DNA from: Mobula hypostoma
Lineage: Eukaryota
Direction of reading: 5' to 3'
Assembly: GCF_963921235.1 (NCBI RefSeq)
Contig: NC_086108.1
Span: 71,674,001 to 71,738,000 of the forward strand
DNA: 64,000 bases
The translations under genes were made by a program, and so were the position numbers. The notes beneath the pieces were generated by a model. The model was not told the origin of the DNA, did no database searches, and saw only the letters and a program-made list of their open reading frames with translations. Position 1 is the first letter of the stretch, and every line of letters starts with the position of its first letter. Shown here piece after piece: positions 1,416 through 51,100 of this stretch.

Positions 1416-2541
1416 CTCATCTTAGACTTGATAAGATAAGTTCTGCTGAGGTGTTCTAAATTGATTTGATTACACTTTTGACTGATTTTTAAATCTTCTA
1501 AAACATCTATCTTAATATTTGATTGGCTGAGTGTGTGTGGTCATTTAAGCCATTGATCCAATTCAGTGCTCGAGAATGTTCCCTGTTAATGTGTGTCGAC
1601 TGATTATTTGACTGAAATTTTTTTTACCATTTCAATCTCCTAAAAAGAAGCTCATTTGGGAATAGCGGAGGAATATGCTGCTCATTTTATGTGTGTTTGG
1701 TGAATCATGAGCATGATTTAGAACAACTTGTAACTTCGATGCATCTTTTCCTTTATCTTCCTACACTTTTTCTACCTCTTGTAGATTTTGGAACAATGTC
1801 TCACAAGCTGAACAACATATCATAGAGTTTGTGAACCATGAAACAAATTCCTGCATCCTACTCCCATTATTTGAAATTACAATAGTGTTTTATCATAGCT
1901 TTGCAAAACAAATAGGACTACCTTCCATGGGCATCTTGGTGAGCATGGACAAGTTGGGCTGAAGAACTTTTCTACATTCCTCTGATAAAATGGAAAAATC
2001 TAGGTTTAAAAATCGAGATCTGTATATTTTCTCATGTTTGTTAAAAACTGCGGAGCTCTGTTGCTACAAATGATAATTTCATTGCTGGTATTCTTAATTG
2101 GCACTTGTTTTAAAATAATTCTATTATAAAATATTTGGATGGCATATTGTAAACTGTGCTAAAGACCTTTTATGTGTTGCTGCATTGGCATTGTTGGTCA
2201 CAATGCTCTTTGTCCATGCAAACTGGAGGCCAAATGGTTGGTCTGAAGACTGAAACTTTTGTTAGAAGTTATTTTGATGGCATAGTTGAATGATTCTTCT
2301 GGTTGGGTCAGATTAACATTTGAGATGTTTCAAGCAGCTGGTCCACTGCAGAGATTGTTTGAAGGATGCCAAAAAGGATTTAAAAATAAAACAATGAATG
2401 CTGTTTTGTTGAGAGATGTATTGATTTGTACCTTGATCGCAATTTCAGTTTTATTACAGAACAAATATCACACATATAAATTCTGATATTTTTGTGTAGT
2501 CGTCACCAGGATAACACAGAATATTATGTTTATTTTAACAG

Positions 2542-2612
2542 CTAAAAGATAATAAAGTGTATGATATCCCAGTAGCAGTAATAGCAGGGAACAGGCCTAA
2601 CTACCTTTACAG
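2542..2612 (+). CDS. POMGNT1: POMGNT1 coding exon, first in window (71 nt): LKDNKVYDIPVAVIAGNRPNYLYR
   Basis: acag|...|gtgaga boundaries; peptide matches POMGNT1 VPVAVIAGNRPNYLYR. Confidence 0.97.
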
Positions 2613-3327
2613 GTGAGATTACTTATTGTTAATGTGGTTCATGCAGATGATAATTGAATTGAAAATACATGTATTTAATTTGTTTGTTAATGTTAACATG
2701 AGTATTTCAACATATCCTTATTTCATTGTTTTGCTATATTAAGAATATATTTCAGAATTCTATGGTTCCTGTCTCATGTACAGGTAGTTGTGTATCATCC
2801 TGATCTATGGCTATCTAGCTAACAACAGGTCTGGAGATTTCTAATTCTTCCTGTTAAAGGACATTTGACTGAATAGTCAGGCTATATATGAATTAGAGAG
2901 TACGAAATAGAGACTCTCAGAGATTATATTCATGAAGATTTAATAAGATGTTGGGAGAATATCTATACTTGGGAGTCACTGATGGGAGGTGTCATTGTTT
3001 TTAAAATGTCTCTGGAAAGGCTTTATGCATAACTTTTTTGCAGCTTGGAATGTTTTGCCATGAGAATTGGGGCAATGGAGAAAATCTTGTGGCATTGGAA
3101 GTTGAAAAAGATTCTGGTCTATGGGCACACACATAACAGTGGCTGATTTTTGGACTGCCTTCTCTGCAAACCAGGTCCAATTCTAGTTGGTCTAAAATAA
3201 AATCCTGAATTTTTTTAAATTTTTGATTTGTTTTAAGTCCCCAAGATTTTAATATATCCAAATGTATCTGATTAGGAGAGATGATAAAATAAACCGCAAT
3301 TTTGAATGTAGCTTTGCTTTTTTGCAG

Positions 3328-3403
3328 GATGTTGCGTTCATTACTATCTGCACAGGGTGTGAATCCAGAGAAAATCATTGTTTTCATTGATGGCTACTAT
3401 GAG
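3328..3403 (+). CDS. POMGNT1: POMGNT1 exon (76 nt): [25 protein letters not shown]
   Basis: tttgcag| and |gtgaga; phase-compatible with neighbouring exons. Confidence 0.97.
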
Positions 3404-3917
3404 GTGAGAATTTACTTTATTCAAAAGAATAGGTGTACATAAATCAAACCCTCTGAAAATGTAATATCCAAATGAACTATTTTTCCTTTTTCTCTATAGC
3501 ACAGATAAACTTAACTGTATTCTGATTCACTTTTGATTCTTTATGGAGATATTTAGAATATTAATGTTTTTGTAAGTGCAGAGAAAATCTGATTATTATT
3601 AGAGAGATAATAAGAATTCTATTGTGCTCATCCTAAAGAGGTGTGAGTAACCAAACTGCTTTATTTATACATGTTTCTACTCTCTCACCTTTGGTTACAA
3701 TATCTCTTCCAAAGCCAGACCCCAGGTTTCATATCCAAACTGCAGTGTTCAAATATGTTCTTTGTTTTGGTTTGATATTATTCCGATTGATATTTAATAA
3801 AATAAATTATAATATGCTAGACATGGTATTTTCTTCAGGTTTAAAAATAAAATGAAAATTATATAATTTCAAGTAAATCTGTGCTTTAATGTTCGATGTT
3901 TCTCTTCCCTCTTTTAG

Positions 3918-4001
3918 GAGCCAATGGATGTGGTAGAACTCTTTGGCTTGAAAGGTGTTCAGCATACTCCCATTAGTATTAAAAATGCTCGAGTGTCACA
4001 G
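3918..4001 (+). CDS. POMGNT1: POMGNT1 exon (84 nt): [28 protein letters not shown]
   Basis: cttttag| and |gtaaca; peptide match. Confidence 0.97.
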
Positions 4002-4327
4002 GTAACAGTTTAAAGTTTTAGTAATCTGCTTGCCTTCTCTATTTTCTTTGTCTACTAGCAGTTCAAGTAGGATCCTTTTCCATCAGTGTTTCCTGATTTT
4101 AATAGTTCAAAGGACACAAACAATGATGAATTAAAATCTGAACTGCTTGTGCTGCTGAATGAAGACAACTTCATTTGTCTTCAAAGACAACTTCATTTAC
4201 AAAAAGAAGGACCACTGTAACTGTACTTGTTAGTGTTGTTAACTTACTGTATATAAAGAGGATGGGTTTTGTCTATTAACCCTGATCAGCACTTGTATTT
4301 CTTTGTAACTTCTTTTTCTCTTCACAG

Positions 4328-4369
4328 CATTACAAAGCCAGTTTGACAGCCACTTTCAATTTACATCCG
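4328..4369 (+). CDS. POMGNT1: POMGNT1 exon (42 nt): HYKASLTATFNLHP
   Basis: ttcacag| and |gtaagt; peptide match. Confidence 0.97.
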
Positions 4370-5049
4370 GTAAGTAGTGAAACCATTCTGTACAAGATTC
4401 TTTTAAAGTGTAAACTACTATGGCCCACTTAGGACTCAATCCTACAGGTAAGTATTGATGATTCCAAATGGAATTTCCAGCATTAATCTGTTTAAATGGA
4501 ATCAAGTTGGGGGGCTTCGTGTGTGTAAAGTCCTGAAGTTACTGATCGATTTGTAATGCAGTTTTCTCCATCACTGGACTCAGTTATCTTGTTCACATTC
4601 CGAGGTGTCTCAGATCCTGTGCTAGATTAGACCCCCCTCTCACTGAAATCAATGTGGGCATGTTAATAATAATGTGAAAGAGAGGGCAAAATCTTTTTTT
4701 ATTTATTATTTGATTTTGTTTGTTTTAAGTGTTTGCAGCAAATGTTTTTAAAAGTATTTTTAAATGTTTGTAGTTTCATCTTTAGTAGTTTTCCAAAAGT
4801 TGCACTTAATATTCATTTTTTCCAAATTGACTAAGTTGCTAGTTTACAGTACCATTTGCTTGCATTTGGCCAATATTCTAAACCTTTCCTATCCATGTAC
4901 CTCTGCATATGTCTTTTAAAAATTGTAATTGTACTTGTACTTGCCTCTACCAAAGCCAATATGCACTGTGTTTTGGAGAGAATCTTGCTGCTCAGATTCT
5001 ATTTAAATCTTTCCCCACTCACCTTTAATCTACACACTTTAATTCCTTA

Positions 5050-5395
5050 TGCTGGGAAATACATTCTCATAATTTTATAAGCCTCCATGGTTATCCCTGA
5101 ACATGATTCATTCCAGGGGAAATGGTCAAATCCTATCCCATCGCTCCTTATAACTCAAACACTCCAGTCTAGGCAACAGTCCTGTGAATCCTATTTGTGT
5201 TCTCAGGAGCTTGATCATATCCTTTCTCTGGCGTAGCAACCAAAACTGCACAGAGTACTCCCAGTAGAGTCTAACAAATAATTTGTACATTTCTACCAAG
5301 ACATTCCAACTCCCATACTCAGTGTCTCAGCAGATGAAGGTGACAAGCATTCCTTACTCCTTCACTACTTTGTCTACCTGTGCTGCTCTTTTCGG
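5050..5395 (-). mobile_element. Old CR1 LINE fragment (RT C-terminal region)
   Basis: caaaactgcacagagtactccc is the reverse of the CR1 LEYCVQFW coding motif; heavily decayed. Confidence 0.55.
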
Positions 5396-5619
5396 GGAAT
5401 GAGATGCCAAAAAAAACAACTGTTGGAAGAACTTAGTGGGTTGAGCCAGCATCTAGTTTGGGGGGGGGGTGGGAGTGGTAGTGGGGAAGAGGAGCGAATA
5501 GAGTGCAGAGTACTGACTCGAAATGTCACCAATTCCTTCAGCCAGAATGAATGTATACGTTTGCACACATACGCACACACCGGTCTCTTGTGTTTCCCGC
5601 TGCTGCCACATAACAACAA

Positions 5620-6545
5620 TTGGGAGACCACAGTCAGTGCGGATTGGAAATAACATCTTCTCTTTGCTGACTGTCATCACCTGCAGACCTCAAGGATATG
5701 TGCTTAGCCCTCTGTGCTATTCTGTCTATGCCCATGATTGTGTGGCCAGGCGCAGCTCAAATGCCATCTATAAATTTACTGATGACACAGCAATTGTTGG
5801 CAGAACTTCAGAAGATGATGAGAAGGTGTACAGGAGTGAAGGTGGATCAACTGGTTGAGTGATATTGCAACAACAAACTAGCACTCAAAGTGAGTAAGAC
5901 CAAGGGATTGATTGTGGACTTTGGGAAGGGTAAGTTGAGCAAACACACCAGTCCTCATCGAGGGATCAGCAGTAGAAAGGGTGAGCAATTTCAAGTTCCT
6001 GGGTGTCAACTTCTCTGAAGATCTATCCTGGGCCCAACCTATTCATGCAATTACAAAGAAGGCACAACGGTGTATATATTTCATTAGGAATTTGTGGAGA
6101 TAAAGTTAGTATAATTATTGAAATGTATCACAATATGTGCCAGTACAAGAAAATGCGAAGTCTGAGGAAACTTGGTATATCATGAAAGACTCTCAAAAAA
6201 TTTCTGCAAATGTTCTGCGAAGTGCATTCTAACTGGTTGCAACACCTTTCTGGTATGGAGGGGCCACTGCGCAGGATCGGAAAAAGCTGCAGAAAGTTGC
6301 AAACTCAGCCAAGTCCATCATAGGCACTCGCCTCCCTACTGTTGAGATCTTCAAAAGACGAAGCCTCAAAAAGCAACATCTATCATTAAGAACTCACATC
6401 AGCCCTCTTCTCATTGCTACCATTACGGAGAAGTACAGGAGCCTGCAGACAGACTCAATATTTTAGAAACAGCTTCTTTTTCTCTGTGATCAGATTTCTG
6501 AATGGACAATGAATCCATGTATACTACCTCACAATTTCTTTATTT
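5620..6545 (+). mobile_element. Rex1/Babar LINE 3' fragment
   Basis: PQGYVLSPLCYSVYAHDCVARRSSNAIYKFTDDTAIVG (RT motifs), with frameshifts. Confidence 0.85.
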
Positions 6546-16514: not shown

Positions 16515-16643
16515 GGCTATGAGCACACAGCAGAGGACATTGCTTTACTCTATCGAGTGGAGAGTATGCCAGGGCTTGGATGGGTTCTAAAGAAGAGCCT
16601 TTATAAAGATGAGCTGGAGCCAAAGTGGCCAACACCAGAAAAG
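16515..16643 (+). CDS. POMGNT1: POMGNT1 exon (129 nt): [43 protein letters not shown]
   Basis: ccttag| and |gtaagg; PGLGW motif. Confidence 0.98.
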
Positions 16644-17169
16644 GTAAGGTTGTTTTAATTCCTAGTCCATTGATTCAATGTTTTTTCCTATGTGTTATTC
16701 TAACAGCTGTTTTCATTTTTCCATAATGATCACTTTGAGTGTATCAGTGTGACAATATTTTGTACTTTCCCCTCTCTCTTTTCACATTTTTTTCTTGCCA
16801 GGAATTGTAGAAGAAGTATCTTAAATACGTATGCTATCTTTCCTTTTGGATTTTTATGCATTAGTGGAACTGTACAGTAATTATTTACAGACAAATTATT
16901 TTAATTTGTTATGGGGATGAGAGAGATGAAGTCCAGGAAAAAAAATGCAGAAATACCATGTCCAACTTTCTCTTTCTCCTTTCAATTCCTTTTGCCTTTG
17001 CAGTAAGGCATCTCTTCCGAGAATGATCCTTTAAATGGATTTTTTGTCTTCAGTGGTCAATGTACTTGAGTTTAGACTATCAGACAACTATTTTCTCTCT
17101 TACCTGCGGCCAGATCATTTGCTTTGTACAGCTAAGGAAAAATTAAAAGAAACCATAGTAATTTAGTGG

Positions 17170-19240
17170 GGTGAATATCAGACACCACATAATGTATGTA
17201 CGGAACAAGGCGGTGTTCCTCGAGGGGAAGGGGAGGCGGAGTGTTGCTCTCAGGTTGCTGGCAGCCATCGTAAAGCACCAGCATATGATGATCACAGAGA
17301 GAGCTGGAGACAGCAAGTCTCAAGAATAAGGTGGTTGTGCTGCACCAGCATTGTACCACCATGGGGGAAGCTCCTCGTTCAGCACTGACCCAGGTCAAAG
17401 TGCTAGAGGGCTACGAAGATAGCCTGTCAGCTAGTGAAGGTGGAGCAATTGGAGGCTGCCCGACGGGCTAACTGGCAAACGGATTCTATTAAGGTTTGAG
17501 CCTTGTTGCTGCAGGGAGATGATCCAAACATGCTGATTGGGGATTGGGATATCTGGCTAGATGGTGAGGATGGAGGAATCAGAATCAGCTTTATTATCAC
17601 CGGCATGTGACGTGAAATTTGTTAACTTAGCAGCAGCAGTTCAATGCAATACATAATCTAGCAGAGACAAAATAATAATAATAAGCAAGTAAATCAATTA
17701 TGTATATTGAATAGATTTTAAAAAGTCCAAAAACGGAAATACTGTATATTTTTAAAAAAAAAGTGAGGTAGTGTCCAAAGATTCAATGTCCATTTAGGAA
17801 TTGGATGACAGAGGGGAAGAAGCTGTTCCTGAATAACTGAGTATGTACCTTCAGGCTTCTGTACCTCCTACCTGATGGTAACAATGAGAAAAGGCCATGC
17901 TCTGGGTACTGTAGGTCCTTAATAATGGATGCTGCCTTTCTGAGACACCGCTCCCTGAAGATGTCCTGGGTACTTTGTAGGCTCGTACCCAAGATGGAGC
18001 TGACTAGGTTTACAACCTTCTGCAGCTTCTTTTGGTCCTGTGCAGTAGCCCCTCCAAACAGACAGTGATGCAGCCTGTCAGTATGCTCTCCACGGTACAA
18101 CTATAGAGATTTTTGATGAGTATTTGTTGATATGCCAAGTCTCTTCAAACTCCTAATGAAGTATAGCCACTGTCTTGCCTTCTTTATAACTCCATCAATA
18201 TGTTGGGACCAGGTTAGATCCTCAGAGGTCTTGACACCCAGGAGCTGCTCACTCTCTCCACTTCTGATCCCTGTGAGGATTGGTATGTGTTCCTTCTTCA
18301 TACCCTTCCTGAAGTCCACAATCAGCTCTTTTGTCTTACTGACGTTGAGTGCCAGGTTGTTGTTGTGGCACCACTCCGCTAGTTGGCATATCTCACTCCT
18401 GTGTGCCCTCTCGTCACCACCTGAGATTCTACCAACAATAGTTGTATCGTCAGCAAAGTTATAGATGGTATTTGAGCTGTGCCTAGCCACACAGTTGTGT
18501 GTATACAGAGGGTAGAGCAGTGGGCTAAGCACACTCCCCTGAGGTGCGCCAATGTTGATCGTCAGCGTGGAGGATATGTTATCACCAATCTGCACAGATT
18601 GTTGTCTTCCAGTTAGGAAATCGAGGATCTAATTGCAGAGAGAGGTACAGAGGCCCAGGTTCTGCAACTTCTCAAACAGAGCAGAGGTTGTATGATTCTC
18701 TCTCTACAGCTCAGATCTATGACCACATGATCCCATACCCAGCACAGGGTCCCTGGGAAATGTCAGAGGAATACTACAGTAGGCCCTTCCAAGGCGACAG
18801 AGATCAGGGGGTTCTCCCCTAAGGAACTAGAGGGGTTGGCGGATAGGTACAAGCAGAAGCTGGGAAGGCCTCTGGCTACGTGTTTGTTGAGGATATGGAT
18901 GATAGGGGTACTGGAGTGAGTCTATCTAATAGAAAGAAGGGCGCCTTAGGGGGTCTGTTGTTCCAACATGTGATCAACAACACCCACAGAATGCTGCTCG
19001 CTCCCTGTAAGTGTAAATAAATCCTTATGGGATTGGGTGGCAGTGTCGGTCAAGGTCAGATACCCTTCCCACCTTGAGTAGGATTTAAAGCCTTTGGCAG
19101 AGTGAAACACAGAAGAGAAAGGGACCAGGGCTCTTTGCCAGTGGTTTTGTGCTTTCTATGTAGTTTAGTGGGGTGCTTGTGGGGGTTATAGTGGCCTGTG
19201 GGCTGACTAGTCATGGTGTTGTATCTTTTGAGGGGTGAAA
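17170..19240 (+). mobile_element. Degraded endogenous retrovirus internal region with ERV-L/Fv1-like gag, split by a Rex1 insertion
   Basis: IKV*ALLLQGDDPNMLIGDWDIWLD (from 17488), EIRGFSPKELEGLADRYKQKLGRPLATCLLRIW (from 18800), SLWDWVAVSVKVRYP and E*NTEEKGTRAL, in the same order as ERV-L gag motifs. PPT GAGGGGTGAAA at 19230-19240. Confidence 0.75.
17576..18676 (-). mobile_element. 5'-truncated Rex1/Babar LINE
   Basis: GAPQGSVLSPLLYPLYTHNCVA...FADDTTIVG; reverse (TTCTGA)n tail at 17576. Confidence 0.92.
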
Positions 19241-19754
19241 TGTAATGTAAAGGATAAACTTGCCTACTGATGGAAGGCTGCTTCCACGGTGCCGGTCGCT
19301 GATTGGCCCATTTGAAAGATGTGGGAGCTCTCTCCCATTAACTGGCTTTCACACTATAGCACCAACTTCTGGTTTCGGGCACCCCAGCAGTATAAGAATA
19401 GTGCGTGCCAGACATTCTGACTCTTGGCTAGGGTCTGGCTCCCTTCAGACTGGGTCGCGACCAGGGCTGATGAGCCACTGGGAAAGTGCTGCAGATATAA
19501 GGGCCCCAGAACAGAGACAGACAGTTAGTTATAGTGTTATAGTTGTGAAACTTGAGGGGCTTAACAAAGTTCCTGTTTGAGTTAGAAATGTTATTGACTG
19601 TTTAGTGTTGCAGTTTTGTTATAAGTACTTGTTTGACTTAGATGTTTGGTTGAGTGTTTCACTGTTGGTTTGTAAATAAATAGTTATCGTACTTACTCAC
19701 AATCAGTATCTTCTATTCCATTGACCGAATCCGCAAATCTGCTTCTGCGAAACA
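19241..19754 (+). mobile_element. Putative 3' LTR of the ERV
   Basis: Starts TGT directly after the PPT; TATAAG at 19391, AATAAA at 19675-19680; ends ...GAAACA. The 3' boundary is inferred. Confidence 0.6.
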
Positions 19755-20480: not shown

Positions 20481-20606
20481 CTCTGGGACTGGGACATGTG
20501 GGTGAGAATGCCTGAGCAAAGGAAAGGTCGGGAGTGTATTATCCCAGATGTATCCAGATCGTACCATTTTGGCATCGTTGGACTCAATATGAATGGGTAT
20601 TTTCAT
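20481..20606 (+). CDS. POMGNT1: POMGNT1 exon (126 nt): [42 protein letters not shown]
   Basis: ttcacag| and |gtaagt; contains the catalytic WDWDMW region. Confidence 0.98.
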
Positions 20607-20984: not shown

Positions 20985-23900
20985 ATAGAAACATAGGAAA
21001 CCTACAGGCCCTTCAGCCCACAAAGTTGTGCCGAACATGGCCCTACCTTAGAAATTACTAGGCTTACCTTTAGCCCTCTATTTTTCTAAGCTCCATGTAC
21101 CTATCTAATTGTCTCTTAAAAGACCCTATTGTATCCACCTCTACCACCGTTGCTGGCAGCCCATTCCACGCACTCACCACCTTCTGAGTGAAAAAACTTA
21201 GCCTTGACATCTCCTCTGTACCTACTCCCCATCACCATAAACCTGTGTCCTCTTGTGGCAACCTTTTCAGCCCTGGGAAAAAGCCTATGACTATCCACAC
21301 GATCAATGCCTCTCATCATCTTATACACCTCTATCAGGTCACCTCTCATCCTCCGTCGCTCCAAGGAGAAAAATCCGAGTTCACTCAACCTATTCTTATA
21401 AGGCATGCTCCCCAATCCAGACAACATCCTTGTAATTCTCCTCTGCACCCTTTCTATGGCTTCCACATCCTTCCTGTAGTGAGGCGACCAGAACTGAGCA
21501 CAGTACTCCAAGTGGGGTCTGACCAGGGTCCTATATAGCTGCAACATTACCTCTCGGCTCCTAAATTCAATTCCACAATTGATGAAGGCCAATACACTGT
21601 ACGCCGCCTTAACCATAGAGTCAACCTGCGCAGCTGTTTTGAGCGTCCTATGGACTCGGATCCCAAGGGCCCTCTGATCCTCCACACTTCCAAGAGTCTT
21701 ACCATTAATACTATATTCTGCCATCATATTTGACCTACCAAAATGAACCACTTCACACTTATCTGGGTTGAACTCCATCTGCCACTTCTCAGCCTAATTT
21801 TGCATCCTATCAATGTCCCGCTGTAACTTCTGACAGCCTTCCACACTATCCACAACACCTCCAACCTTTGTGTCATCAGCAAACTTACTAACCCATCCCT
21901 CCACTTCCTCATCCAGGTCATTTACAAAAATCACGAAGAGTAAGGGTCCCAGAACAGGTCCCTGAGGCACCTCACTGGTGACTGACCTCCATGCAGAATA
22001 TGACCTGCCTGCAACCGCCCTTTGCCTTCTGTGGGCAAGCCAGTTCTGGATCCACAAAGCAATGTCCCCTTGGATCCCATGCCTCCTTACTTTCTCAATA
22101 AGCCTTGCATGGGGTACCTTATCAAATGCCTTGCTGAAATCCATATACACTATATCTACTGCTCTTCCTTCATCAATGTGTTTATTCACATCCTCAAAAA
22201 ATTCAGTCATGCTCGTAAGGCACGACCTGCCCTTGACAAGGCCATGCTGACTACTCATAATCATATTATACCTCTCCAAATGTTCGTAAATTCTGCCTCT
22301 CAGGATCTTCTCCATCAGTTTACCAGCCACTGAGGTAAGACTCACTGGTCTATAATTCCCTGGGCTATATCTACCCCTTTTCTGAAATAAAGGAACAACA
22401 TTCGCAACCCTCCAATCCTCTGGAACCTCTCCCATCCCCATTGATGATGCAAGGATCATCGCCAGAGGCTCAGCAACCTCTTACCTCGCCTCCCACAGTA
22501 TCCTGGGGTACGTCTCATCTGGTCCCGGCGACTTACTCAATTTGATGCTTTCCAAAAGCTCCAGCACATCCTCTTTCTTAGTATCTACATGCTCAAGCTT
22601 TTCAGTCTGCTGCAAGTCATCACTACAATCACCAAGATCCTTTTCCATAGTGAATACTGAAGTAAAGTATTCATTGTGCTATTTCCTCTGGTTCCATACA
22701 CACTTTCTCACTGTCACACTTGATAGGTCCTATTCTTCCACATTTTATCCTCTTGCCCTTCACATACTTGTAGAATGTCTTGGGGTTTTCCTTAATCCTG
22801 CCCGCCAAGGCCTTCTCATGGCCCCTTCTGGCTCTCCTAATTTCCTTCTTAAGCTCCTTCCTGCTAGCCTTGTAATCTCTAACATTACCTAGCTCTCTGA
22901 ACCTTTTGTAAGCTTTTCTTCTTGACTAGGTTTATTACAGCCTTTGTACACCACAGTTCCTGTACCCTACCATAACGCCCCTGTCTCATTGGAACGTACC
23001 TATGCAGAACTCCACACAAATATCCCCTGAATATTTGCCACATTTCTTCCATACTTTTCCCTGAGAACATCTGTTTCCAATCTAAGCCTCTAATTTCCTG
23101 CCTGATAGCCTCATAATTCCCCTTACTTCAATTAAATCCTCTTCTAACTTGTCTGTTCCTATCTCTCTCCAATGCTATTGTAAAGGAGACAGAATTATCT
23201 CCAAATGCTCTCCCACTGAGAGATCTGACACCTGACCAGGGTCATTTCCCAATACCAAATCAAATATAGCCTCTCTTCTTGTAGGCTTATCTACATATTG
23301 TGTCAAGAAACCTTCCTGAACACACCTAATAAAGTCCACCCCATTTAAACCTCTCACTCTAGGGAGATGGCAAATGATATTTGGGAAATTAAAATCTCCC
23401 ATCATGACAACTCTGTTATTATTACACCTTTTCCAGGATCTGTTTCCCTATCTGCTCCTCAATATCCCTGTTACTATTGGGCGGCCTATAAAAATCACCC
23501 AGTAAAGTCATTGACTCCTTCCTGTTCCTAACCTCCACCCACAGAGACTCCATAGACAATCCCTCAATGGCGTCCACCTTTTCTGCAGCCGTGACACTAT
23601 CTCTGATCAACAGTGCCACGCCCCCACCTCTTTTGCCTCCCTCCCTGTCCTTTCTGAAACATCTAAAACCCAGCACTGGAAGTAACCATTCCTGTCCCTG
23701 AGCCATCCAAGTCTCTGTAATGACCACCACATCATATCTCCAAGTACTGATCCACGCTCTAAGCTCATCTGCTTTGTTCACAACACTCCTTGGCGTTAAA
23801 ATAGAAACATCTCAAACTTTCGGTCTGAGCGCATCCCTTCTCTATCACCTGCCTATCCTCCCCCTTGCATTGTCTACAAGCTTTCTCTATCTGTGAGCCA

Positions 23901-24970
23901 ACCTCCTCTTTCCCAGTCTCTTCAGTTCAGTTCCCAGCCCCCAATAATTCTAGTTTAAACTCTCCCCAGTAGCCTTAGCAAACCTGCTTCTCAGCTTCCT
24001 TCCTAACTCCCTGTAGTCTTTTTTTCAAGACCTCTTCCCTTTTCCCCCCTATGTCATTGGTACCAATATGTATCATGACCTCTGGCTGTTCTCCCTCCCA
24101 CCGCAGGATATCTTGGACACAGTCTGAAACATCCCGGACCTTGGCACCTGGGAGGCAAACTTCTCTCTGAGTTTCTTTCTTGTATCCACAGAATCGCCTG
24201 TCTGACCCCCTAACTATAGAGTCCCCTATCACTACTGCCTTCCTCCTCCTTTCACTACCCTTCTGAGCTACAGGGCCAGACTTCGTGCCAGAGTGACGTC
24301 CATTGCCGCTTCTCCCAGGTAGGCTGTTCCCCCCCAACGGTACTCAAACAGGAGTACTTATTGTCAAGGGGTACAGCCATAGGGGTACTCTCTCGTACCT
24401 GACTCTTCCTCTTCCCCCTCCTGACTGTGACCCATCTGTCTGTCTCCTGTGGCCCTGGTATGACCACCTAACTATAACTCCTTTCTATCACCTCCTTGCT
24501 CTCCCTGACCAGGCGAAGGTCATCAAGCTGCATCTCAGGTTCCCTAACTTGGTCCCTCAGGAGTTGCAGCTCGACATGCCTGGTGCAGATATGGCCGTCC
24601 GGGAGGCTGGGAGACTCCACGACCCCCCCACATCTGACACTGAGCACAGAAAACAGGCCTCACACTCATATTACCTCCTTTCTGCAATTAACACATTTAA
24701 ACCTGTCCCGTTACTGCCTAAGCCCGTTGAGCCAAAGCCCTACCACACTGCCGCCTCTCACTCGGCTGCCTGCAGGATACGGCTGTCTTTTTAAACCTTT
24801 CGCGCACTACTAGCTGACGTCATGTGCCTTCGCAGTCTCGCTTCTCTTTTACCCCGAGCAGTAAAAAAACTCACTTCACTCCGAAAAATCAGCCGTTCAC
24901 TCACAGCCTTCTTGCTCCGAATCAAAAACCTTTGAAGATTCCTTGCCTTTTTAAACCTTTCGCACACAAT
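20985..24970 (-). mobile_element. Near full-length CR1 LINE (ORF1 SGNH esterase, ORF2 EN+RT), frame-disrupted
   Basis: VIGDSIVRG..HIGTNDI (ORF1); ITETW, MGDFNFP (EN); [26 protein letters not shown] (RT); octamer-repeat 3' tail. Confidence 0.95.
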
Positions 24971-32860: not shown

Positions 32861-35800
32861 CCAATAACTACTCCTGCTTGAGTACTGTTGGGGGGACGGC
32901 CTATCTGGGGGAAGCTACAGTGGCCGCGCCTCTGGCACAGAGTCTGGCCCTGTGTGTCAGCAGGGCAGGGAAAAGAAGAGGATGGCAGCAGTGATAGGGG
33001 AACTATAGTTAGGGGGTCAGACAGGTGATTCTGTGTTGCAGGAAAGAAGCACGGATGGTAGTTTGCCTCCCAGGTGCCAGGGTCTGAGATGTTTCTAATC
33101 GTGTCCACGATATCCTGAAGTGGGAAGGAGAACGGCCAGAAGTTGTGGTAAATATTGGTACCAATGACATAAGCAGGAAAAGGGAGGAGATCCTGAAAGC
33201 AGACTATAGGGAATTAGGAAGGAAATTGAGAAGCAGGACCACAAAGGTAGTCATCTCAGGATTACTGCCTCTGCCACGTGACAGTGAGTAGAGGAATAGA
33301 ATAAGGTGGAGGATAAATGCGTAGCTGAGGGATTAGAGCGGGGGCAGGGATTCAGATTTCTAGAACATTGGGACCTCTTTTGGAGCAGGAGTGACCTATA
33401 CTAAAAGGATGGGTTGCACTTGAATCCCAGGGGGGCCAATATCCTGGCGGGGAGATTTGTTGAGGCTATTGGGGAGAGTTTAAACTAGGATTGCTGAGGG
33501 GTGGGAACCGAACTGAAGTGACGAAGGAAGAGGCGGTTGGCAAACAAATAGAGAAAGCTTGGAGACAGTGCGAGAGGGAGGATAGGCAGGTGATAAGGGA
33601 AGCAATCAGACCGATGGTTTGAGATGTGTCTATTTTAATGCAAGGGGTATTATGATCAAAGCAGATCAGCTTAGAGTGTGGATCAGTACTTGGAGCTATG
33701 ATGTTGTGGCCATTACAGAGACTTGGATGGCTCAGGAGCAGGAATGGTTACTTAGAGTGCCAGGCTTTACATGTTTCAGAAATGACAGGGAGGGAGGCAA
33801 GAGAGGTGGGGGCGTGGCGCTGCTGATCAGAGATAGTGTCATGGCTGCAGAAAAGGAGGAAGTCATGGAGGGGTTATCTGCAGAGTCTCTGTGGGTGGGA
33901 GTTAGGAACAGGAAGGGGTCGATAACTCTACTGGGTGTTTTTATAGACCACCCAATAGTAACAGGGACATCGAGGAGCAGATAAGGAGACAGATTCTGGA
34001 AAGGTGTAATAATAATAATAGGGTTGTTGTGGTGGGAGATTTTAATTTCTCAAATATCGGTTCGCATGTCCCTAGAGTGAGGGGTTTAGATTGGGTGGTT
34101 TGTTACGTGTGTTCAAGAAGGTTTCTTGACACAATATGTAGATAGGCCTACAAGAGGAGAGGCTGTACTTGATCTGGTATTGGGAAATGAACCTGGTGAG
34201 GTGTCAGATCTCTCAGTGGGAGAGCAGTTTGGAGATACAGGTTTCTCCCGCCATCCGAAGGTAGAGCGTTCCTATGAAATGGTTTGTAAGCCGGAATGTT
34301 GTAAAGTGAAGAGACAATTACCATTTATTTGTATGGGAAAAATTTGTGAGCGTTCGCAGACCCAAAAAAAACCTACCAAATCATGCCAAGTAACACATAA
34401 AACCTAAAATAACAGTAACATATAGTAAAAGCAGGAATGATATGATAAATACACAGCCTATATAAAATAGTAATACTTTTCTACAATCATTGCCGCACTG
34501 TTCTCCATAGCGGAAATCTCACGCAAGCGCTCTCGGCAGAAACACTTTCTCCAGTAACCTTTAAGCTATGAAGCTGCCAAATCATACCAAATAAGACACA
34601 AAAATACACAGTCTATATAAAGTAGAAATAATGTATGTACAATGTAGAATCACTTACTGGAATTGAGAAGTCAGCACCAAGCACACTGATGATGGTGTGT
34701 TAGGCTGAGTCGTCGGAGGTTGGGGTGGTGTAGTGGTCCCCAACCTCCGGGCAGCGAACTGATACTGATCCAAGGAGAATGCAGCAGTAGCCGGGACGCA
34801 CCCAGCACATCTTTAAGAAAAAAGCCTAAATAAACAAGCTAATTAATTAGGTGCTGCCTGGCACGTAAATGTCGGCCCAGATCAGAGGTGACGCAATTGC
34901 CTCTGATCTGGTGTTTTCACGCAGTTGCTCCTGGATGACTTCACTTTCAGTCCGTTCGTTACTGCATTCGGTTTCGATTGTTATCCTTTCCCCTTCCAAT
35001 TGCATCAGCTCTTCATCTGTCAGTTCTTGGTCATGGGATGCCAAAACCTCTTCAACATCATCTTCGTCAACTTCCACAAGCCAAACTCACTTTGTCCTTG
35101 CTTCATTCACCACGATCAAAACGCTTAATTATGTCTAGTTTTACGCTAAGTGTAACACCCTTACGGGCTCTTTTAGGCTTTTCCGATACCTTAGAGCTCA
35201 TCTTGCTAACAGCTGCTCGCAGGCATGTGTTTAAGCAATGCCGGCTGGAATGCAGTTCCGAGGGAGGAGCTTGACTGCTCTTTTTTCGTAACAGTGAAAA
35301 CACCTTCTGTTAGCGAAAACAGGTAACTAATGTAGGTCTTTCGTAACAGTGAGGTTTCGTAAAGTGAACGTTCGAAAAGCGGGGGACACCTGTAGTGATC
35401 ACAATTCTACCTCCTTTACCATAGCATTGGAGAGGGATAGGAACAGACAAGTTATGAAAGCGTTTAATTGGAGTAAGGGGAAATATGAAGCTATCAGGTA
35501 GGAACTTGGAAGCATAAATTGGGAACAGATGTTCTCAGGGAATTGTTTGGAAGAAACATGGCAAATATTCAGGGGATAGTGTGGGGTTCTGCATAGGTAT
35601 ATTCCAATGAGACAGGGAAAGGATGGTAGGGTACAGGAACAGTGGTGTACAAAGGCTGTTGTAAATCTAGTCAAGAAGGCTTACGAAAGGTCAAAAAACT
35701 AGGTAATGATAGAGATCTAGAAGATTATAAGGCTAGCAGGAAGGAGCTTAAGAATGAAATTAGGAGAGCCAGAAGGGGCCATGAGAAGGTCTTGGCGGAC

Positions 35801-37617
35801 AAAATTAAGGAAAACCCCACGGCATTCTACAAGTATGTGAAGAGAAAGAGGATAAGACGTGAGAGAATAGGATCAGTCAAGTGTGACAGTGGAAAAGTGT
35901 GTATGGAACCAGAGGAGATAGCAGAGGTACTTAATGAGTGCTTCAATATTCACAAGGGAAAAGGATCTTGGCGATCGTAGGGATGACTTGCAGCGGACTG
36001 AAAAGCTTGAGCATGTAGTTATTAAGAAAGAGGATGTGCTGGAGCTTTTGGAAAGCATCAAGTTCGATAAGTCTCCGGGACCGGACGAGATGTACCCCAG
36101 GCTACTGAGGGAGGCAAGGGAAGAGATTGCTGAGCCTCTGGTGATGATCTTTGCATCATCATTGGGGATGGGAGAGGTTCCAGAGGATTGGAGTGTTGTG
36201 GATGTTGTTCCCTTATTCAAGAAAGGAAGTAGAGATAGCCCAGGAAATTATAGGCCAGTGAGTCTTACTTCAGTGGTTGGTAAGTTGATAGAGAAGATCC
36301 TGAGAGGCAGGACTTATGAACATTTGGAGAGGCATAGTATGATTAGGAATAGTTAGCATGGCTTTGTGAAAGGCAGATCGTGCCTAATTGAATTTCTTTG
36401 TGGATGTGACTAAACACATTGATGAAGCTAGAGCAGTAGATGTAGTGTATATGGATTTCAGCAAGGCGTTTGACAAGGTACCCCATGCAAGGCTTATTGA
36501 GAAAGTAAGGAGGCATGGGATCCAAGGGGACATTGCTTTGTGGATCCAGAACTGGCTTGCCCACAGAAGCAAAGAGTGGTTGTAGACGGGTCATATTCTG
36601 CATGGAGGTCAGTCACCAGTGGTGTGTCTCAGGGATTTGTTCTAGGACCCCTACTCTTCGTGATTTTTTTATAAATGACCTGGATGAGGGAGTGGCAAGA
36701 TGGGTTAGTAAACTTGCTGATGACACAAAGGTTGGAGCTGTTGTAGATAGTCTGGAGGGCTGTCAGAGGTTACAGCGGGACATTGATAGGATGCAAATCT
36801 GGGCTGAGAAGTGGCAGATGAAGTTCAACCCAGGTAAGTGTGAGGTGGTTTATCTTGGTAGGTCAAATATGATGGTAGAATATATTATTAATGGTAAGAC
36901 TCATGGCTGTGTGGATGATTAGAGGGATCTTGGGGTCCGAGTCGATAGGATACTCAAAGCTGCTGCGCAGGTTGACTCTGTGGTTAAGAAAGCACATGGT
37001 GCATTAGCCCTCATCAATCGTGGAACTGAGTTTAGGAGCCGAGAGGTAATGTTGTAGCTATATAGAACCCTGGTTAGACCCCACTTGGAGTACTGTGCAC
37101 AGTTCTGGTCGCCCCACTATGGGAAGGGTGTGGAAACTATAGAAAGGGTGCAGAGGAGATTTGCAAGGATGTTGCCTGGATTGGGGAGCATACCTTATGA
37201 GAATAGGTTGAATGAACTCAGCCTTTTTTCTTGAAGCGACGGAGGATGAGAAGTGGCCTGATAGAGGTGTGTAAGATGATGAGAGGCATTGATCATGTGG
37301 ATAGTCGGAGGCTTTTTCCCAGGGCTGAAATAGCTAGCACGAGAGGGCACAGTTTTAAGGTGCCTGTAAGAAAGTACAGAGATGTCAGGGGTAAGTTTTT
37401 TGCACAGAGAGTGGTGAGTGTGTGGAATGGGCTGCCTGAGACGGTGGTAGAGGTGGATACAATAGGGTCTTTTAAGAGACTCCTGGACAGGTACATGGAG
37501 CTTAGAAAAATAGAGAGCTATGGGTAACCCTAGGTAATTTCTAAGGTAAGGACATGTTCGGCAGAGCTTTGTGGGCCGAAGGGCCTGTATTGTGCTGTAG
37601 GTTTTCTATGTTTCTAT
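32861..37617 (+). mobile_element. CR1 LINE, same family as 20985-24970, 5'-truncated in ORF1, interrupted by a Tigger
   Basis: [52 protein letters not shown] tail. Confidence 0.95.
34238..35392 (-). mobile_element. Internally deleted Tigger/pogo DNA transposon
   Basis: TA TSDs (34236-37, 35393-94); imperfect TIRs CAGGTTTCTCCCGCCATCCGAA / CAGGTGTCCCCCGCTTTTCGAA; transposase N-terminus MSSKVSEKPKRARKGVTLSVKLDIIKRFDRGE next to C-terminal EDDVEEVLASHDQELTDEELMQLE. Confidence 0.92.
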
Positions 37618-45759: not shown

Positions 45760-46637
45760 TGGTGGTGTTGTAGATAGTGTAGAGGATTGTCGCAGATTGC
45801 AGAGAGACATTGATAAGATGCAGAAGTGGGCTGAGAAGTGGCAGATGGAGTTCAACCCGGAGAAGTGTGAGGTGGTACACTTTGGAAGGACAAATTCCAA
45901 AGCAGAGTACAAAGTAAATGGCAGGATACTTGGAAGTGTGGAGGAGCAGAGGGATCTGGGGGTACATGTCCACAGATCTCTGAAAGTTGCCTCACAGGTA
46001 GATAGGGTAGTTAAGAAAGCTTATGGAGTGTTAGCTTTCATAAGTTGAGGGATAGAGTTTAAGAGTCGTGGGGTAATGATGCAGTTCTATAAGACTCTGG
46101 TTAGGCCACACTTGGAGTACTGTGTCCAGTTCTGGTCGCCTCACTTTAGGAAGGATGTGGAAGTATTGGGAAGGGTACAGAGGAGATTTACCAGGATGCT
46201 GCCTGGTTTAGAGAGTATGCATTATGATCAGAGATTAAGGGAGCTAGGGCTTTACTCTCTGGAGAGAAGGAGAATGAGAGGAGACATGATAGAGGTATAC
46301 AAGATTTTAGGAGGAATAGATAGACTGGACAGCCAGCGCCTCTTCCCCAGGGCACCACTGCTCAATACAAGAAGACATGGCTTTAAGGTAAGGGGTGGGA
46401 AGTTCAAGGGGGATATTAGAGGAAGGTTTGTTACTCAGAGAGTGGTTGGTGCGTGGAATGCACTGCCTGAGTCAGTGGTGGAGGCAGATACACTAGTGAA
46501 ATTTAAGAGATTAGTAGACAGGTATATGGAGGAATTTAAGGTGAGGGGTTATATGGGAGGCAGGGTTTAAGGGTCAGCACAACATTGTGGGCCGAAGGGC
46601 CTGTAATGTGCTGTACTATTCTATGTTCTATGTTCTA
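45760..46637 (+). mobile_element. Relatively young CR1 3' fragment
   Basis: Nearly open frame WAEKWQMEFNPEKCEVVHFG..LEYCVQFWSP; (TTCTATG)n tail. Confidence 0.93.
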
Positions 46638-47619
46638 AAATGAATCTCAGGATTTTATATGGTGGCATATTGTATTTTGATAATAAACTTACTTTGAACT
46701 TATGCTGCAGTGCCTCTTACACCAAGTTCTTGTACTGAATCAACTGCAGCCTTGCTTTGAAGGGTTATTTCCTAATTTTAAGCAGATTTCTTGAGCTAGA
46801 GGTTATTCTTTGAAAATGGGTGTTTTGCCAGGCGAATTAAATGGTCCTACACAAATTACCCATTGTAATTCATGAGTCTTTGCAGGATCCAAGTAATCAA
46901 AATTGACTTTGCCTTTGCTTTCCAGCATTTATTTGTGATAAGCCAAATATAATTTGTGACAATTGATTGTTTCTTGATTGACATCCATTGATCAACCAGT
47001 AAGTGCCATCTACAATAGTTAATTGCCTATACTATATCAACAACAGCTTCCAAACCACTAATGTTGCCACAAAAAAAAAATGAGCAGTACATATTTGGGA
47101 ATGCCACCACCTACAGATTTTCCTCCAAATCACACACCATCCTGCATAATTTGGAAATATGAAAAAAAAGTAAAAGTAAGTCTTTTCATCTCTCTCTGGG
47201 GCAAAATAATCACGATTTCTTTGTGCTTCTATGAAAAATTGTTCTGACCATTGCATTAATTTCTGATCTTGTTCATGGATGACTTTGTGCCTCCCAGCTA
47301 AAGAATCTTGACCACTGGATGGTCTATTGAAGGCAGTGTTCCACCATCTGTACCAACAGTCACCAGTCCAGAACAAGTTTATCCCACTGCATTGCAGGAG
47401 AGAAAAACATTGCAAGCACTCACCACAAGATCAAACCCGCTTTATGAATTACAAAAGGTATCTGCACCAACAGTATTTAAATACAAGATTCAATGGTATT
47501 AAATGACTTCAATAGTCATTCTCATATTTCATTAATATAAGATGCCTTTAATGTGGAGAAATGTGATGTGCTTCATTTAGAGGAATCAAAAGGCTGAATA
47601 GAGACTGCAAATAGGTAAA

Positions 47620-48125
47620 GACCACAGAACAATGCAGCATTTGGTGCCGTTGTCATGCAATCTATGTAAATTTATTCAACCCTTCCCTCATACACGGGTC
47701 CGAGCCCTGCCTTTTTTTCACATTCAGTTGCCTTTCCATGAGCCTTTAGATGTCTCCATCGTATCAGCCTCTATCATCACCCCGGTAGTACTTTCTATGT
47801 ACCCACCAACTTATGTAAAAAAAATACACACAAACCAACTTCCTCTGACATCTCCTTAAACTTATCTCCACACCTTTACTCTCCTTAAACAGATGATCTG
47901 GGAAAAAGGTGCTGGCTGGATTATGTCTCTCATATTATACACCTTCAGGTCACGTCTCATCCTCCGTTGCTCAAAAGAGAAAAACCTTAGCTTGCTCATA
48001 AGACATGTTCTCTAATCCAGGCAGCATCCTGGAAAAATCTCCTCTGAATCTTCTCTAAAGCTTCCGCATCCTTCCTATAAATGAGATGACCAGAAATGAA
48101 CACAGTACTCCAAGTAGGGTCTAGC
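47620..48125 (-). mobile_element. Older CR1 3' fragment
   Basis: Reverse LEYCVHFWSS motif and decayed 3' end. Confidence 0.7.
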
Positions 48126-48126
48126 C

Positions 48127-51100
48127 AGAACGTAGAACACAACAGGCCCTTCGTCCCACAATGTTGTGTCAACCATGTAACCTACTAGAGAAGCTGCCAA
48201 GAAATTCCCTACCGCATAGCCCTCTATTTTTCTAAGCTCCATGTACCTATCTAAGAGTCCTTTAAAAGATCCTATTGTATCTCCCTCTACCACTGTTGCT
48301 GGCAGTGCATTACATGCTCCCACCACTCTCTGCGTGAAAAACTTACCTTTGACCTCTCCCCTGTACCTACTGCCAAGCATCATAAAACTACGCTCCTTTA
48401 TGTTAGCCATTTCAGCCCTGGGAAAAAGCCTCTGGCTATCCACACGATCAATACTTTTCATCGTCTTATGTACCTCCATCAGGTCACCTCTCATCCTCTG
48501 TCACTCGAAGGACAAAAGGCTAAGTTCACTCAACCAATTCTCATAAGGCACACTCTCCAATCCAGGCAACATCCTTGTAAATCTCCTTTACCCTCTCTCT
48601 GTTGTATCCACATCCTTCCTGTAGTGAGGTGACCAGAACTGAACACAGCACCCCCAAGAGGGGCCTGACCAAGGTCTAATATAGCTGTAATATTACCTCA
48701 CTGCTCCTGAACTCAATCCCATGGTTGATGAAGGCAAACCCACCATATACCTTCTTAACAACACTGTCAACCTGCACAGCAACTTTGAGTGTCTTATGGA
48801 CATGGACCCCAAGATCTCTCTCATCCTCCACACTGCCAAGAGACTTGCCATCAATATTATTTACTGTCTTCAAATTTGACCTACCGAAGTGAACCACTTC
48901 ACACTTATCTGATTTGAACTCCATGTGCCACTTCTCAGCCCAGTTCTGCATTCTTTTGATGTCTCCAGGCTATCCACAACACCTCCAAGTTTTGTGTCAT
49001 CGGCAAACTTGCTAACCCACCCTTCTACTTCCTCATCCAGGTCATTTATAAAAAATCACAAAGAGGAGGGGTCCCAGAACAGATCCCTGCAGAACACCGC
49101 TGGTCACTAACCTCCATGCAGAATAAGAACCATCTACAGCCACCCTTTGCCTCCTGTGGACAAGCCTATTCTGGATCCACGAAGTAAGGTCTCCTTGGAT
49201 CTCGTGCCTCCTTACTTTCTGAATGAGCCTTGCATGCTGAACCTTATCGAATGCCTTAATGAAATCCATATGCACTACATCCACTGCTCTACCTTCAGCA
49301 ATGTGTTTTGTTACATCCTCAAATAATTCAATCCAGCTTGTAAAGCACAACTTGCCCCGACAAAGCCATGCTGACTATCCCTAATCTGATTATGTCTCTC
49401 CAAATGCTCATAAGTCTTGTCTCTCATGATCTTCTCCAACAACTTACCCACTATTGAAGTAAGACTCACTGGTGTATAATTTCCTGGGTTATCTGTTCAC
49501 CCTTTCTTGAACTGGGGAACAATGTTTGCAACCCTCCAATTATCCGGTACTTCTCCTGTCCCTATTGATGATGCAGCGATGATCGCCAGAGGCTCAGCAA
49601 TCTCCTCCCTCGCTTCCCACAGTAGCCCAGGGTACATCCCGTCTGGACCCGGCGATTTATCTGACTTACCTCCCACAGTAGCCCAGGGTACATCCCGTCT
49701 GGACCCGGCGATTTATCTGACTTACCTCCCTTGCTTCCCACAGTAGCCCAGGGTACATCCCGTCTGGACCCTGCAATTTATCTAACTTAATGCTTTTCTA
49801 AAGCTCCAGCACATCCTCTTTCTTAACGTCTATATACTCAAGCGTTTCAGTTCACTGTAAGTTAACCCCACAAATGCCAAGGTCCTTTTCCCTGGTGAAT
49901 ACTGAAGCAAAGTATTCATTAGGTACCTCCGCTACCTCCTCCTACTCCATGCACACATTTCCACTATTGCAGCTGATTGGTCCTATTCTCATTTGGCTCA
50001 TCCTCTTGCTCTTCACATCCTTGTAGATTGCCTTGGGGTTTACCTTAATCCTGCTTACAAAGGTCTTCTCGTGGCCCCTTCTAGCTCATTCTTGAGCTTC
50101 TTCCTGGCACCCTCGTAATTTTCTAGAACTCTAACATAACCTAGTTTCCTGAACCTTTTGTAAGCTTTTCTTCTTGACTAGATTTTCTACATCCTTTGAA
50201 CACCATGCCTCAGTGGAACATACCTACTTGCATAGTGTTCTGCGTGTTCCCTGATCATTTGCCACATTTCTGCTGTGCATTGCCCTGAGAACATCTGCTC
50301 CCTGTTTATGCTCCCAAGTTTCTGCCTAATAGCATCATATTTACTTCTACCTCAATTAAATGTTTTCCAAAATTGTTGTCTGCTATTCCTTTCCAGCACT
50401 ATGGTAAAGGAGATGGAGTGGTGATCACTACCTCCAAAATGTTATCCCACCAAGAGATCTGACACCTGACCAGCTTCATTTCCCAATACCAGATCAAGTA
50501 CAGCCTCTCCTGTAGTTGGCTTATCTACATATTGCAACAGGAAACCTTCTTGAACACACCTAACAAACTCCACCCCACCCAAACCCTTTACTCTAAAGAG
50601 AAGCCAGTCAATATTGGGAAGTTAAAATCACCCATTAGAACGACCCTATTATTATTGCACCATTCCAGAATCTGCCTCCCTATCTGCTCCTCGATGTCTC
50701 TGTTACTATTGTGGGGAGGTTTATAAAAATCACCCAGTAGAGTTATTGTCCCTTTCCTGTTTCTGACTTCCACCCACACTGACTCAATAGACAATACCTC
50801 CACGACTTCCTCCTTTTCTGCAGCCATACTATCCCTGATTAGCAATGCCATGCACACACCACTTTTGCCTCTCTCCTCATTCTTTTTGAAACATCTAAAA
50901 CCCGGCACACTCAGCAGTCATTCCTGCCCCCGAGACATCCAAGTCCCTGTAATGGCCACAATGTCATAGTTCCACATATTGATCTAAGCTCTGAGTTCAT
51001 CCGCCTTGTTTATGGTACTCCTTGCATTAAAATAGACACACCTCAAACCATCTGGCTGAGTGTGTCTTTGCTCTGCCTATCCACCCTCACAAGCTCTCTA

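Follow-up and report, generated by a model that had tools for sequence, protein, structure and literature searches.

A dead provirus in a POMGNT1 intron of Mobula hypostoma and the class III, ERV-L/ERV-S-type family to which it very probably belongs

A dead provirus lies at 17167-19754 of the 64,000-nucleotide stretch of Mobula hypostoma DNA analysed here (the window; contig NC_086108.1, 71,674,001 to 71,738,000), on the plus strand, sense to POMGNT1 and within one intron of that gene. It is, with high confidence, a doubly deleted member of a multi-copy class III family of the ERV-L/ERV-S type. The family seems to form a branch of the ERV-L/ERV-S group that has no name as yet, is confined to rays and stands apart from the branch of sharks and teleosts; the group is already known from fish, sharks and amphibians, and the family adds a new branch to it and is no surprise. 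The window locus itself is an ordinary fossil, and what it offers lies in its relatives elsewhere in the genome.

The copy in the POMGNT1 intron

The initial annotation had placed the element in a POMGNT1 intron, and the two flanking exons, which match consecutive POMGNT1 residues of PDB 5ggf, bear this out (Table 1). It had also described an internally deleted element with neither pol nor a 5' LTR, as is indeed the case: missing from the window copy are the 5' LTR, the primer site, pro, pol and most of env.

Table 1. Features of the provirus and of its flanks, in window coordinates
Feature	Position	Strand	Evidence
POMGNT1 exon 5' of the element	16515..16643	+	PDB 5ggf residues 338-380, E 1.9e-21
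gag N-terminal part, 5' end cut, several stops and frame changes	17167..17577	+	multi-copy, 68-79%
LINE fragment, 3' end with tail, inside gag	17578..18676	-	RVT_1, E 1.3e-10
gag capsid-like part, decayed major homology region, two frame changes, stops	18677..19144	+	alignment A1, gag profile, multi-copy
env last codons (end of membrane-spanning segment, stop 19189-19191) and short 3' spacer	19144..19229	+	matches other copies
Polypurine tract	19230..19240	+	read from sequence
3' LTR, 514 bp, TGT...ACA, TATAA 19391, AATAAA 19675	19241..19754	+	multi-copy, paired around internal genes
POMGNT1 exon 3' of the element	20481..20606	+	PDB 5ggf residues 381-422, E 8.3e-26

All the peptides quoted in the initial annotation are found, and in the order given there: IKV*ALLLQGDDPNMLIGDWDIWLD at about 17490-17565 in the first frame, then EIRGFSPKEL...LLRIW, DDRGTGV...GGL in the second frame, and SLWDWV...RYP and LAE*NTEEKGTRAL back in the first. 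The two frameshifts that it allowed for are present, but the 5' piece holds further frame changes near 17300 and 17410. The purine tract, the TGT...ACA unit, the TATA and the AATAAA all lie where they had been reported, and the hydrophobic stretch proposed as a possible env tail matches the env end of other copies, its peptide recurring in the env frames of loci L047 and L036.

Homology to other copies starts at 17161-17184 in 20 of 23 of them, so that the window copy has been cut off at its 5' end and begins within gag. To the left of the element, the 520 bases (16644-17170) match none of the fetched loci, and thus show no sign of a leftover 5' LTR or other repeat. As the left end is lost, no target duplication can be read at this copy; the 5-mer of the right flank occurs once to the left of the element, at 16929, which is within chance. 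Further in, homology to the 23 copies breaks at about 17571-17590 in most cases and earlier in four, continues past this point into a second LINE insert in one, and picks up again at 18676-18678 in the two alignments that are cleanest. The capsid-like part of gag ends at the internal deletion, across which gag is joined to env with an overlap of 0-4 bases. Set against locus L032, the window copy matches 1116-1445 and 1613-1985, skips 3.1 kb (1985 to 5076) and matches again at 5076-5714, though L032 itself is without RT.

The LTR begins with TGT at 19241 and ends with ACA at 19754. Its TATAA at 19391 is kept in 17 of 28 aligned LTR copies and its AATAAA in 20 of 26, while the other TATAA, that at 19496, survives in 0 of 25. 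Polypurine tracts similar to that of the window copy precede the 3' LTR in L004, L032, L034, L044 and L104.

Gag type and anatomy of the family

The proposal of a class III, ERV-L/Fv1-type gag has held up, both through matches to a gag profile and through the RT of the family, which falls within the ERV-L/ERV-S radiation. The profile corresponds to alignment A1 of 22 natural frames, the window pieces included, and a HMMER search with it returned 239 proteins among 1.84 billion (representatives searched), matching Fv1-like as well as ERV-L-type gags. Twenty of the 239 were checked by name: 'Friend virus susceptibility protein 1-like' proteins come from electric ray, pipefish, killifish and cats, that of the electric ray being the second-best match to the profile (E 1.4e-36), and further named matches come from frogs, possum, snake and birds. 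The mammalian KVRALIGKEWDP motif is present in two proteins that the profile matches. In the reverse direction, when all six frames of the 64 kb window are searched with a profile made from nine mammalian gags of the ERV-L/Fv1 type, 18788-19078 is the one stretch that matches (E 1.6e-5), a test that is not fully independent because the reference proteins were picked with a profile that includes the window pieces.

Shuffling gave 14 bits at best in 100 trials, whereas the gag pieces of the window reach 43; they match mammalian gags in a set of 192 proteins at a moderate E of 1.5e-5 to 4e-4. Closer relatives are found in rays: the N-terminal part matches residues 67-185 of the stingray gag-pol P0065, in three frames, and the protein P0008 with E 1e-11. 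The major homology region can be recognised in A1 and is exact, by eye, in 3 of the 17 rows that span it. Neither the four window gag pieces nor the 22 rows of A1 match a gag family in Pfam, the best match of the gag profile in the PDB has an E of 0.77, and pairwise BLASTP between a 45-aa window gag piece and the cat Fv1-like protein is not significant (E 0.66). The stingray relative falls below the cut-off for the Fv1-associated family PF17687 (E 0.004); a word-seeded protein search with the stingray gag returned only two proteins, both from rays, and a feature search with that relative's gag gave leads that are all below 0.9 and mix foamy gag, RTL/Gypsy gag, Arc and Fv1. No relative of the family was present in the viral contigs searched.

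A side observation concerns PF17687 (DUF5535) itself. This family marks the P0221 cluster, a mammalian protein that is conserved and goes by two names, 'Friend virus susceptibility protein 1-like' and 'C19orf48 homolog'. By the gag profile this protein is a class III gag derivative (E 2.3e-12), so that PF17687 is likely a gag C-terminal domain.

Searches for further copies covered the 3.48-Gb genome. The 514-bp LTR has at least 41 other matches at 68-80% identity, the best 40 of 544 candidates being scored; both gag pieces are multi-copy and adjoin each other in other loci, and paired LTRs enclose gag, pro, pol and env pieces in other copies, which answers the call of the initial annotation for a genome-wide check of the LTR. 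Locus L032, for instance, reads LTR, gag, pro with RNase H/integrase pieces, env, LTR. Because no fetched copy has every gene unbroken, the layout of the family is read from several partial copies: an LTR of about 510-550 bp, a tRNA-Ser primer site, gag, pro, RT, RNase H, integrase, env, a polypurine tract and the second LTR. In 11 of 12 LTR pairs the K2P distance is 0.20-0.31, the twelfth, with 74 aligned bases only, having been set aside. Exact 5-bp target duplications flank the solo LTRs L016 and L018 (2 of 29 LTR loci) and the provirus L034, and no perfect duplication of 4 or 6 bp was found at the LTR loci.

The primer site consists of 18 bases behind the 5' LTR that are complementary to the 3' end of the host tRNA-Ser(AGA), and all six fetched host tRNA genes that match it are Ser(AGA). 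It is present in 20 of 82 loci at up to four mismatches (best, one), in most of them directly behind the LTR end. In env, a CWIC motif near the start can be read in the L057, L036 and L033 frames, an immunosuppressive domain (ISD) and CX6CC in L057, and TLV_coat reaches 24.5 bits in L057 against a cut-off of 22.5, which is passed in one of six loci scanned; judged by such sequence features, the env of the family is gamma-type. Mouse and caecilian dUTPase queries detected no dUTPase in the 82 loci, of which 31 are integrase-positive, and a third dUTPase query matched three loci only by its last 50 residues.

Two observations on neighbouring elements were made along with these. One family provirus, whose LTRs are 75-80% identical, harbours a Gypsy element in the opposite orientation at L031:1699-6681; the LTRs of the Gypsy element form a pair of their own, 84% identical. 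A sister ERV family forms blocks of 7-10 kb at L060, L061, L062, L070 and L072 that are 94-99.6% identical and lie on the small contigs C122, C123, C137 and C140, with similar matches on C135, C148, C162 and C163; each block carries an 81-bp tandem expansion inside RT, and the blocks look like the product of amplification within a larger repeated unit rather than of infection.

Phylogenetic position and known relatives

Searches with the RT-RNase H frame of a sister family as query returned 64 and 51 proteins, and the pol relatives found come from birds, amphibians, reptiles, lungfish, bichir, teleosts, white shark, three rays and mammals. Two of them can be tied to described elements: P0071 clusters with mouse proteins and has the motif spacing of the ERV-L column in Table 2 of Yedavalli et al. 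2021 (PMC8278194), and P0086, from Xenopus tropicalis, has that of the XtERV-S column in the same table. Over 139 aa, an RT piece from the family shares 47% identity with P0071 (MuERV-L); over RT and connection, decayed family copies are 32-45% identical to MuERV-L and sister families up to 53%. Against the PDB the family RT scores higher with foamy RT (72.5 bits) than with MLV (49.9) or Ty3 (44.1). Spumavirus-like traits are nevertheless not what the family displays, given its gamma-type env and the RT identity to MuERV-L just cited, a comparison made with no foamy row in the tree; a search of the host genome for the foamy protease family gave no match, its control being silent too.

The final tree was computed from 45 rows and 438 columns under LG+G4 and includes 13 of the 47 pol-bearing loci, host copies having been laid on MuERV-L coordinates before alignment. 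The trees are without snakehead-retrovirus (SnRV), foamy-virus or verified HERV-S rows; the rows from mole and chicken may be kin of HERV-S. Queries that resemble the family were used to collect the references, and this biases the sampling towards kin. As the window copy has no pol, its place is borrowed from relatives 67-80% identical to it in DNA. Placed in this way, it belongs to the ERV-L/ERV-S radiation. Eight family copies form a clade (100/99), which joins five other host loci and three ray proteins in a ray clade (99/92); the ingroup that also holds MuERV-L and XtERV-S has a support of 100/99 in the final tree and 99/100 in an earlier one, and the family is set apart from the Gypsy and gamma-type rows at 100/99. 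Two earlier trees give the same placement of family, ray clade and ingroup. A link of the ray clade to the XtERV-S side has 88/62, 82/73 and 86/76 in the three trees and is never starred. Approximately unbiased (AU) tests reject neither a ray clade that is sister to all others (p 0.21) nor one that is sister to mammalian ERV-L (p 0.21), the latter an arrangement not seen in the best tree.

A single clade for all cartilaginous-fish rows is rejected (AU p about 1e-51). The white-shark element lies outside the ray clade, together with elements of killifish and other teleosts, and the ray clade is probably a second elasmobranch lineage besides the shark one. As a separate observation, on P0009 and P0079 in the trees, the white-shark pol sits among teleost elements of killifish and mudskipper with starred support, and this nesting suggests a shark-teleost host switch. 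The nearest named relatives in both pol and gag are the RefSeq predictions P0008, P0011, P0065, P0024 and P0186 from Hemitrygon akajei, Hypanus sabinus and Narcine bancroftii, and one ray relative in RefSeq carries the label 'Friend virus susceptibility protein 1-like'. These predictions are members of sister families; the window family forms its own clade (100/99).

The label ERV-L-like, given initially, is apt for the class III gag and RT, but the Ser primer site, the gamma-type env and the lack of a dUTPase make ERV-S/XtERV-S a better fit than ERV-L proper. The primer site is that of serine in HERV-S and of tRNA-Leu in ERV-L. With MuERV-L and HERV-L the ray family shares a gag that includes the WDGD.W and MHR blocks as well as the 5-bp duplication, and its RT has the 47% identity to MuERV-L given above, yet it differs from them in having env, in having no dUTPase and in its Ser instead of Leu primer site; ERV-L is described as being without env and with a dUTPase after integrase (PMC8278194). 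According to the discussion of the same paper, ERV-S/HERV-S elements have env and no dUTPase, as the ray family does. The likeness extends to XtERV-S of Xenopus tropicalis, the anatomy of which was described by Yedavalli et al.: ERV-L-type gag and pol, a TGT...ACA LTR, a 5-bp duplication, a tRNA-Ser primer site (AGA/TGA in XtERV-S, AGA in the ray family), CWIC near the SU start, ISD and CX6CC in TM, and many internally deleted copies in both. XtERV-S differs in being recent and intact, whereas the ray family is old and decayed, in its LTRs of 705 bp, and in a structure-predicted dUTPase-like segment that has no detectable counterpart in the ray family. Sharks and skates go unmentioned in the available parts of the text and supplements of that paper. 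Fv1, for its part, is an intact host gene, unlike the broken gag of the window.

The initial annotation had taken this gag type to be best known from amniotes, and so implied that its presence here was new. That premise is weak, because RefSeq already contains gags or pols of the type from rays, white shark, teleosts, bichir, lungfish and amphibians, and because a whale-shark ERV is listed beside HERV-L by Xu et al. 2018 (PMC6001957). In the relevant part of their S2 Fig, Rh_ty_ERV3 (whale shark) and No_fu_ERV1 (killifish) come directly before HERV-L and MuERV-L, so that an elasmobranch ERV stands beside HERV-L, MuERV-L and HERV-S by order of labels, not by branches; no skate label occurs in that part, and the sequence sets in the supplements could contain skate members of the ray clade. 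The same authors state that clade Huo occurs in all major vertebrate groups and that cartilaginous-fish ERVs are basal in no clade. Passages of other papers report 2843 clade III RT loci, the majority of ERVs, in six chondrichthyan genomes (Blanco-Melo et al. 2024, PMC11089739), SnRV-like and epsilon-like lineages in elephant shark (Han 2015, PMC4422223), and HERVS/L-like elements, described as present in tetrapods (Naville and Volff 2016, PMC4977317), the picture on which the initial annotation had drawn. No paper naming a ray ERV-L/S family was found in the full-text literature, a scope that leaves aside most subscription journals and Repbase/Dfam.

The family is one data point on the timing of env loss and dUTPase gain in ERV-L, and it also bears on how often ERV-L/S viruses switched hosts in water. 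It would matter more if it were basal in a rooted tree, or if orthologous insertions predated the ray radiation. The boldest reading, which we consider unlikely, is that the ray clade is a batoid-wide, env-bearing, Ser-primed class III branch, sister to all other ERV-L/ERV-S-like viruses and present in cartilaginous fish since their split from bony fish. Were it true, the ERV-L/S/Fv1 lineage would be marine and over 400 million years old, env would be ancestral and dUTPase a later gain.

History of the copy, alternative readings and the LINE insert

We infer that an env-bearing, tRNA-Ser-primed retrovirus entered the germ line repeatedly and that one of its copies integrated in the POMGNT1 intron. 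Two losses would have followed, one of the 5' LTR, the leader and the start of gag, the other of the span from late gag to late env; the copy would also have taken up a younger LINE and presumably decayed neutrally, with no function of its own. Its age may be approached by t = d/2u; with d of 0.20-0.31 and the two rates quoted in Han 2015 (PMC4422223), the result is 45-70 or 450-700 million years, depending on the rate. A host function of the window copy appears unlikely, because its gag frame is broken.

The form of the copy, gag followed directly by an env tail, might be that of a non-autonomous, MaLR-like subfamily that spread as such and not the outcome of a one-off deletion. Many copies are in fact internally deleted, and several pass from gag to env or LTR without pol; nonetheless none of 39 other matches (from the best 40 of 164 candidates scored) crosses the gag/env junction, all 39 ending by query position 459 of 551, the breakpoints vary among copies, and the window copy has no primer site, which copying needs. 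Such a subfamily is therefore quite improbable. Another reading is that of a gag kept as an Fv1-like restriction gene, or of an LTR that serves POMGNT1 as a poly(A) or promoter element: Fv1 and the C19orf48-type mammalian gene derive from the same gag type (PMC8278194), the element is sense-oriented and its AATAAA is kept, but against this the gag has no start, is split by a LINE and contains stops and several frame changes, and the LTR, 68-80% identical to its relatives, is as decayed as LTR pairs are mutually. We take co-option of either kind to be highly improbable.

It is very unlikely, too, that the family is some other lineage of clade Huo, SnRV-like or of the reptile-type class III, that resembles ERV-L/S through unsampled neighbours. 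Neither SnRV nor foamy viruses anchor the trees, the ingroup base shifts from one tree to another, and an SnRV-like lineage is reported in the elephant shark (Han 2015, PMC4422223), all of which would suit such an origin. What speaks for ERV-L/S instead is the identity to MuERV-L in the family and its sister families, the Fv1-type gag, and a set of features shared with XtERV-S, namely the Ser primer site, the 5-bp duplication, CWIC, ISD and CX6CC. That the peptides are Gypsy gag or chance and the LTR a Gypsy LTR has, finally, a negligible probability: the mixed feature leads for the gag of the stingray relative could be read in this way, but the LTR encloses retroviral pol and env and not Gypsy genes, the trees split the family from the Gypsy and gamma-type rows, and the shuffle control, the type of env and the RT tree together refute a Gypsy or chance origin. 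None of the three outcomes named beforehand as speaking against the initial annotation occurred, be it the want of a class III gag match, best matches to Gypsy or non-retroviral proteins, or a single-copy LTR that is never paired around gag/pol. A dead provirus of an ERV-L/ERV-S-type family is thus the reading that we keep.

The LINE within gag is presumably a Rex1 element, as it was first named. It is absent at the same site in 26 of 28 copies spanning it, and its 3' end has matches of up to 94-96% elsewhere in the genome, an identity that suggests that the insert is younger than the provirus. Another LINE copy, at L042:1819-2171, occupies the same GA-rich spot in gag as the insert at window position 17578, so that 2 of the 28 spanning copies carry a LINE there; the left junctions of the two lie within about 2 bases of each other, and the inserts are 77-82% alike and of unequal lengths. 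Since each has closer relatives elsewhere, this degree of likeness rules out a common origin, and the shared spot likely reflects a weak insertion preference. Long LINE copies with RT frames, 72-95% alike, also occur at 21058-24238, 33039-37533 and 45760-51678 of the window, where they sit in neighbouring introns in both orientations as ordinary repeats.
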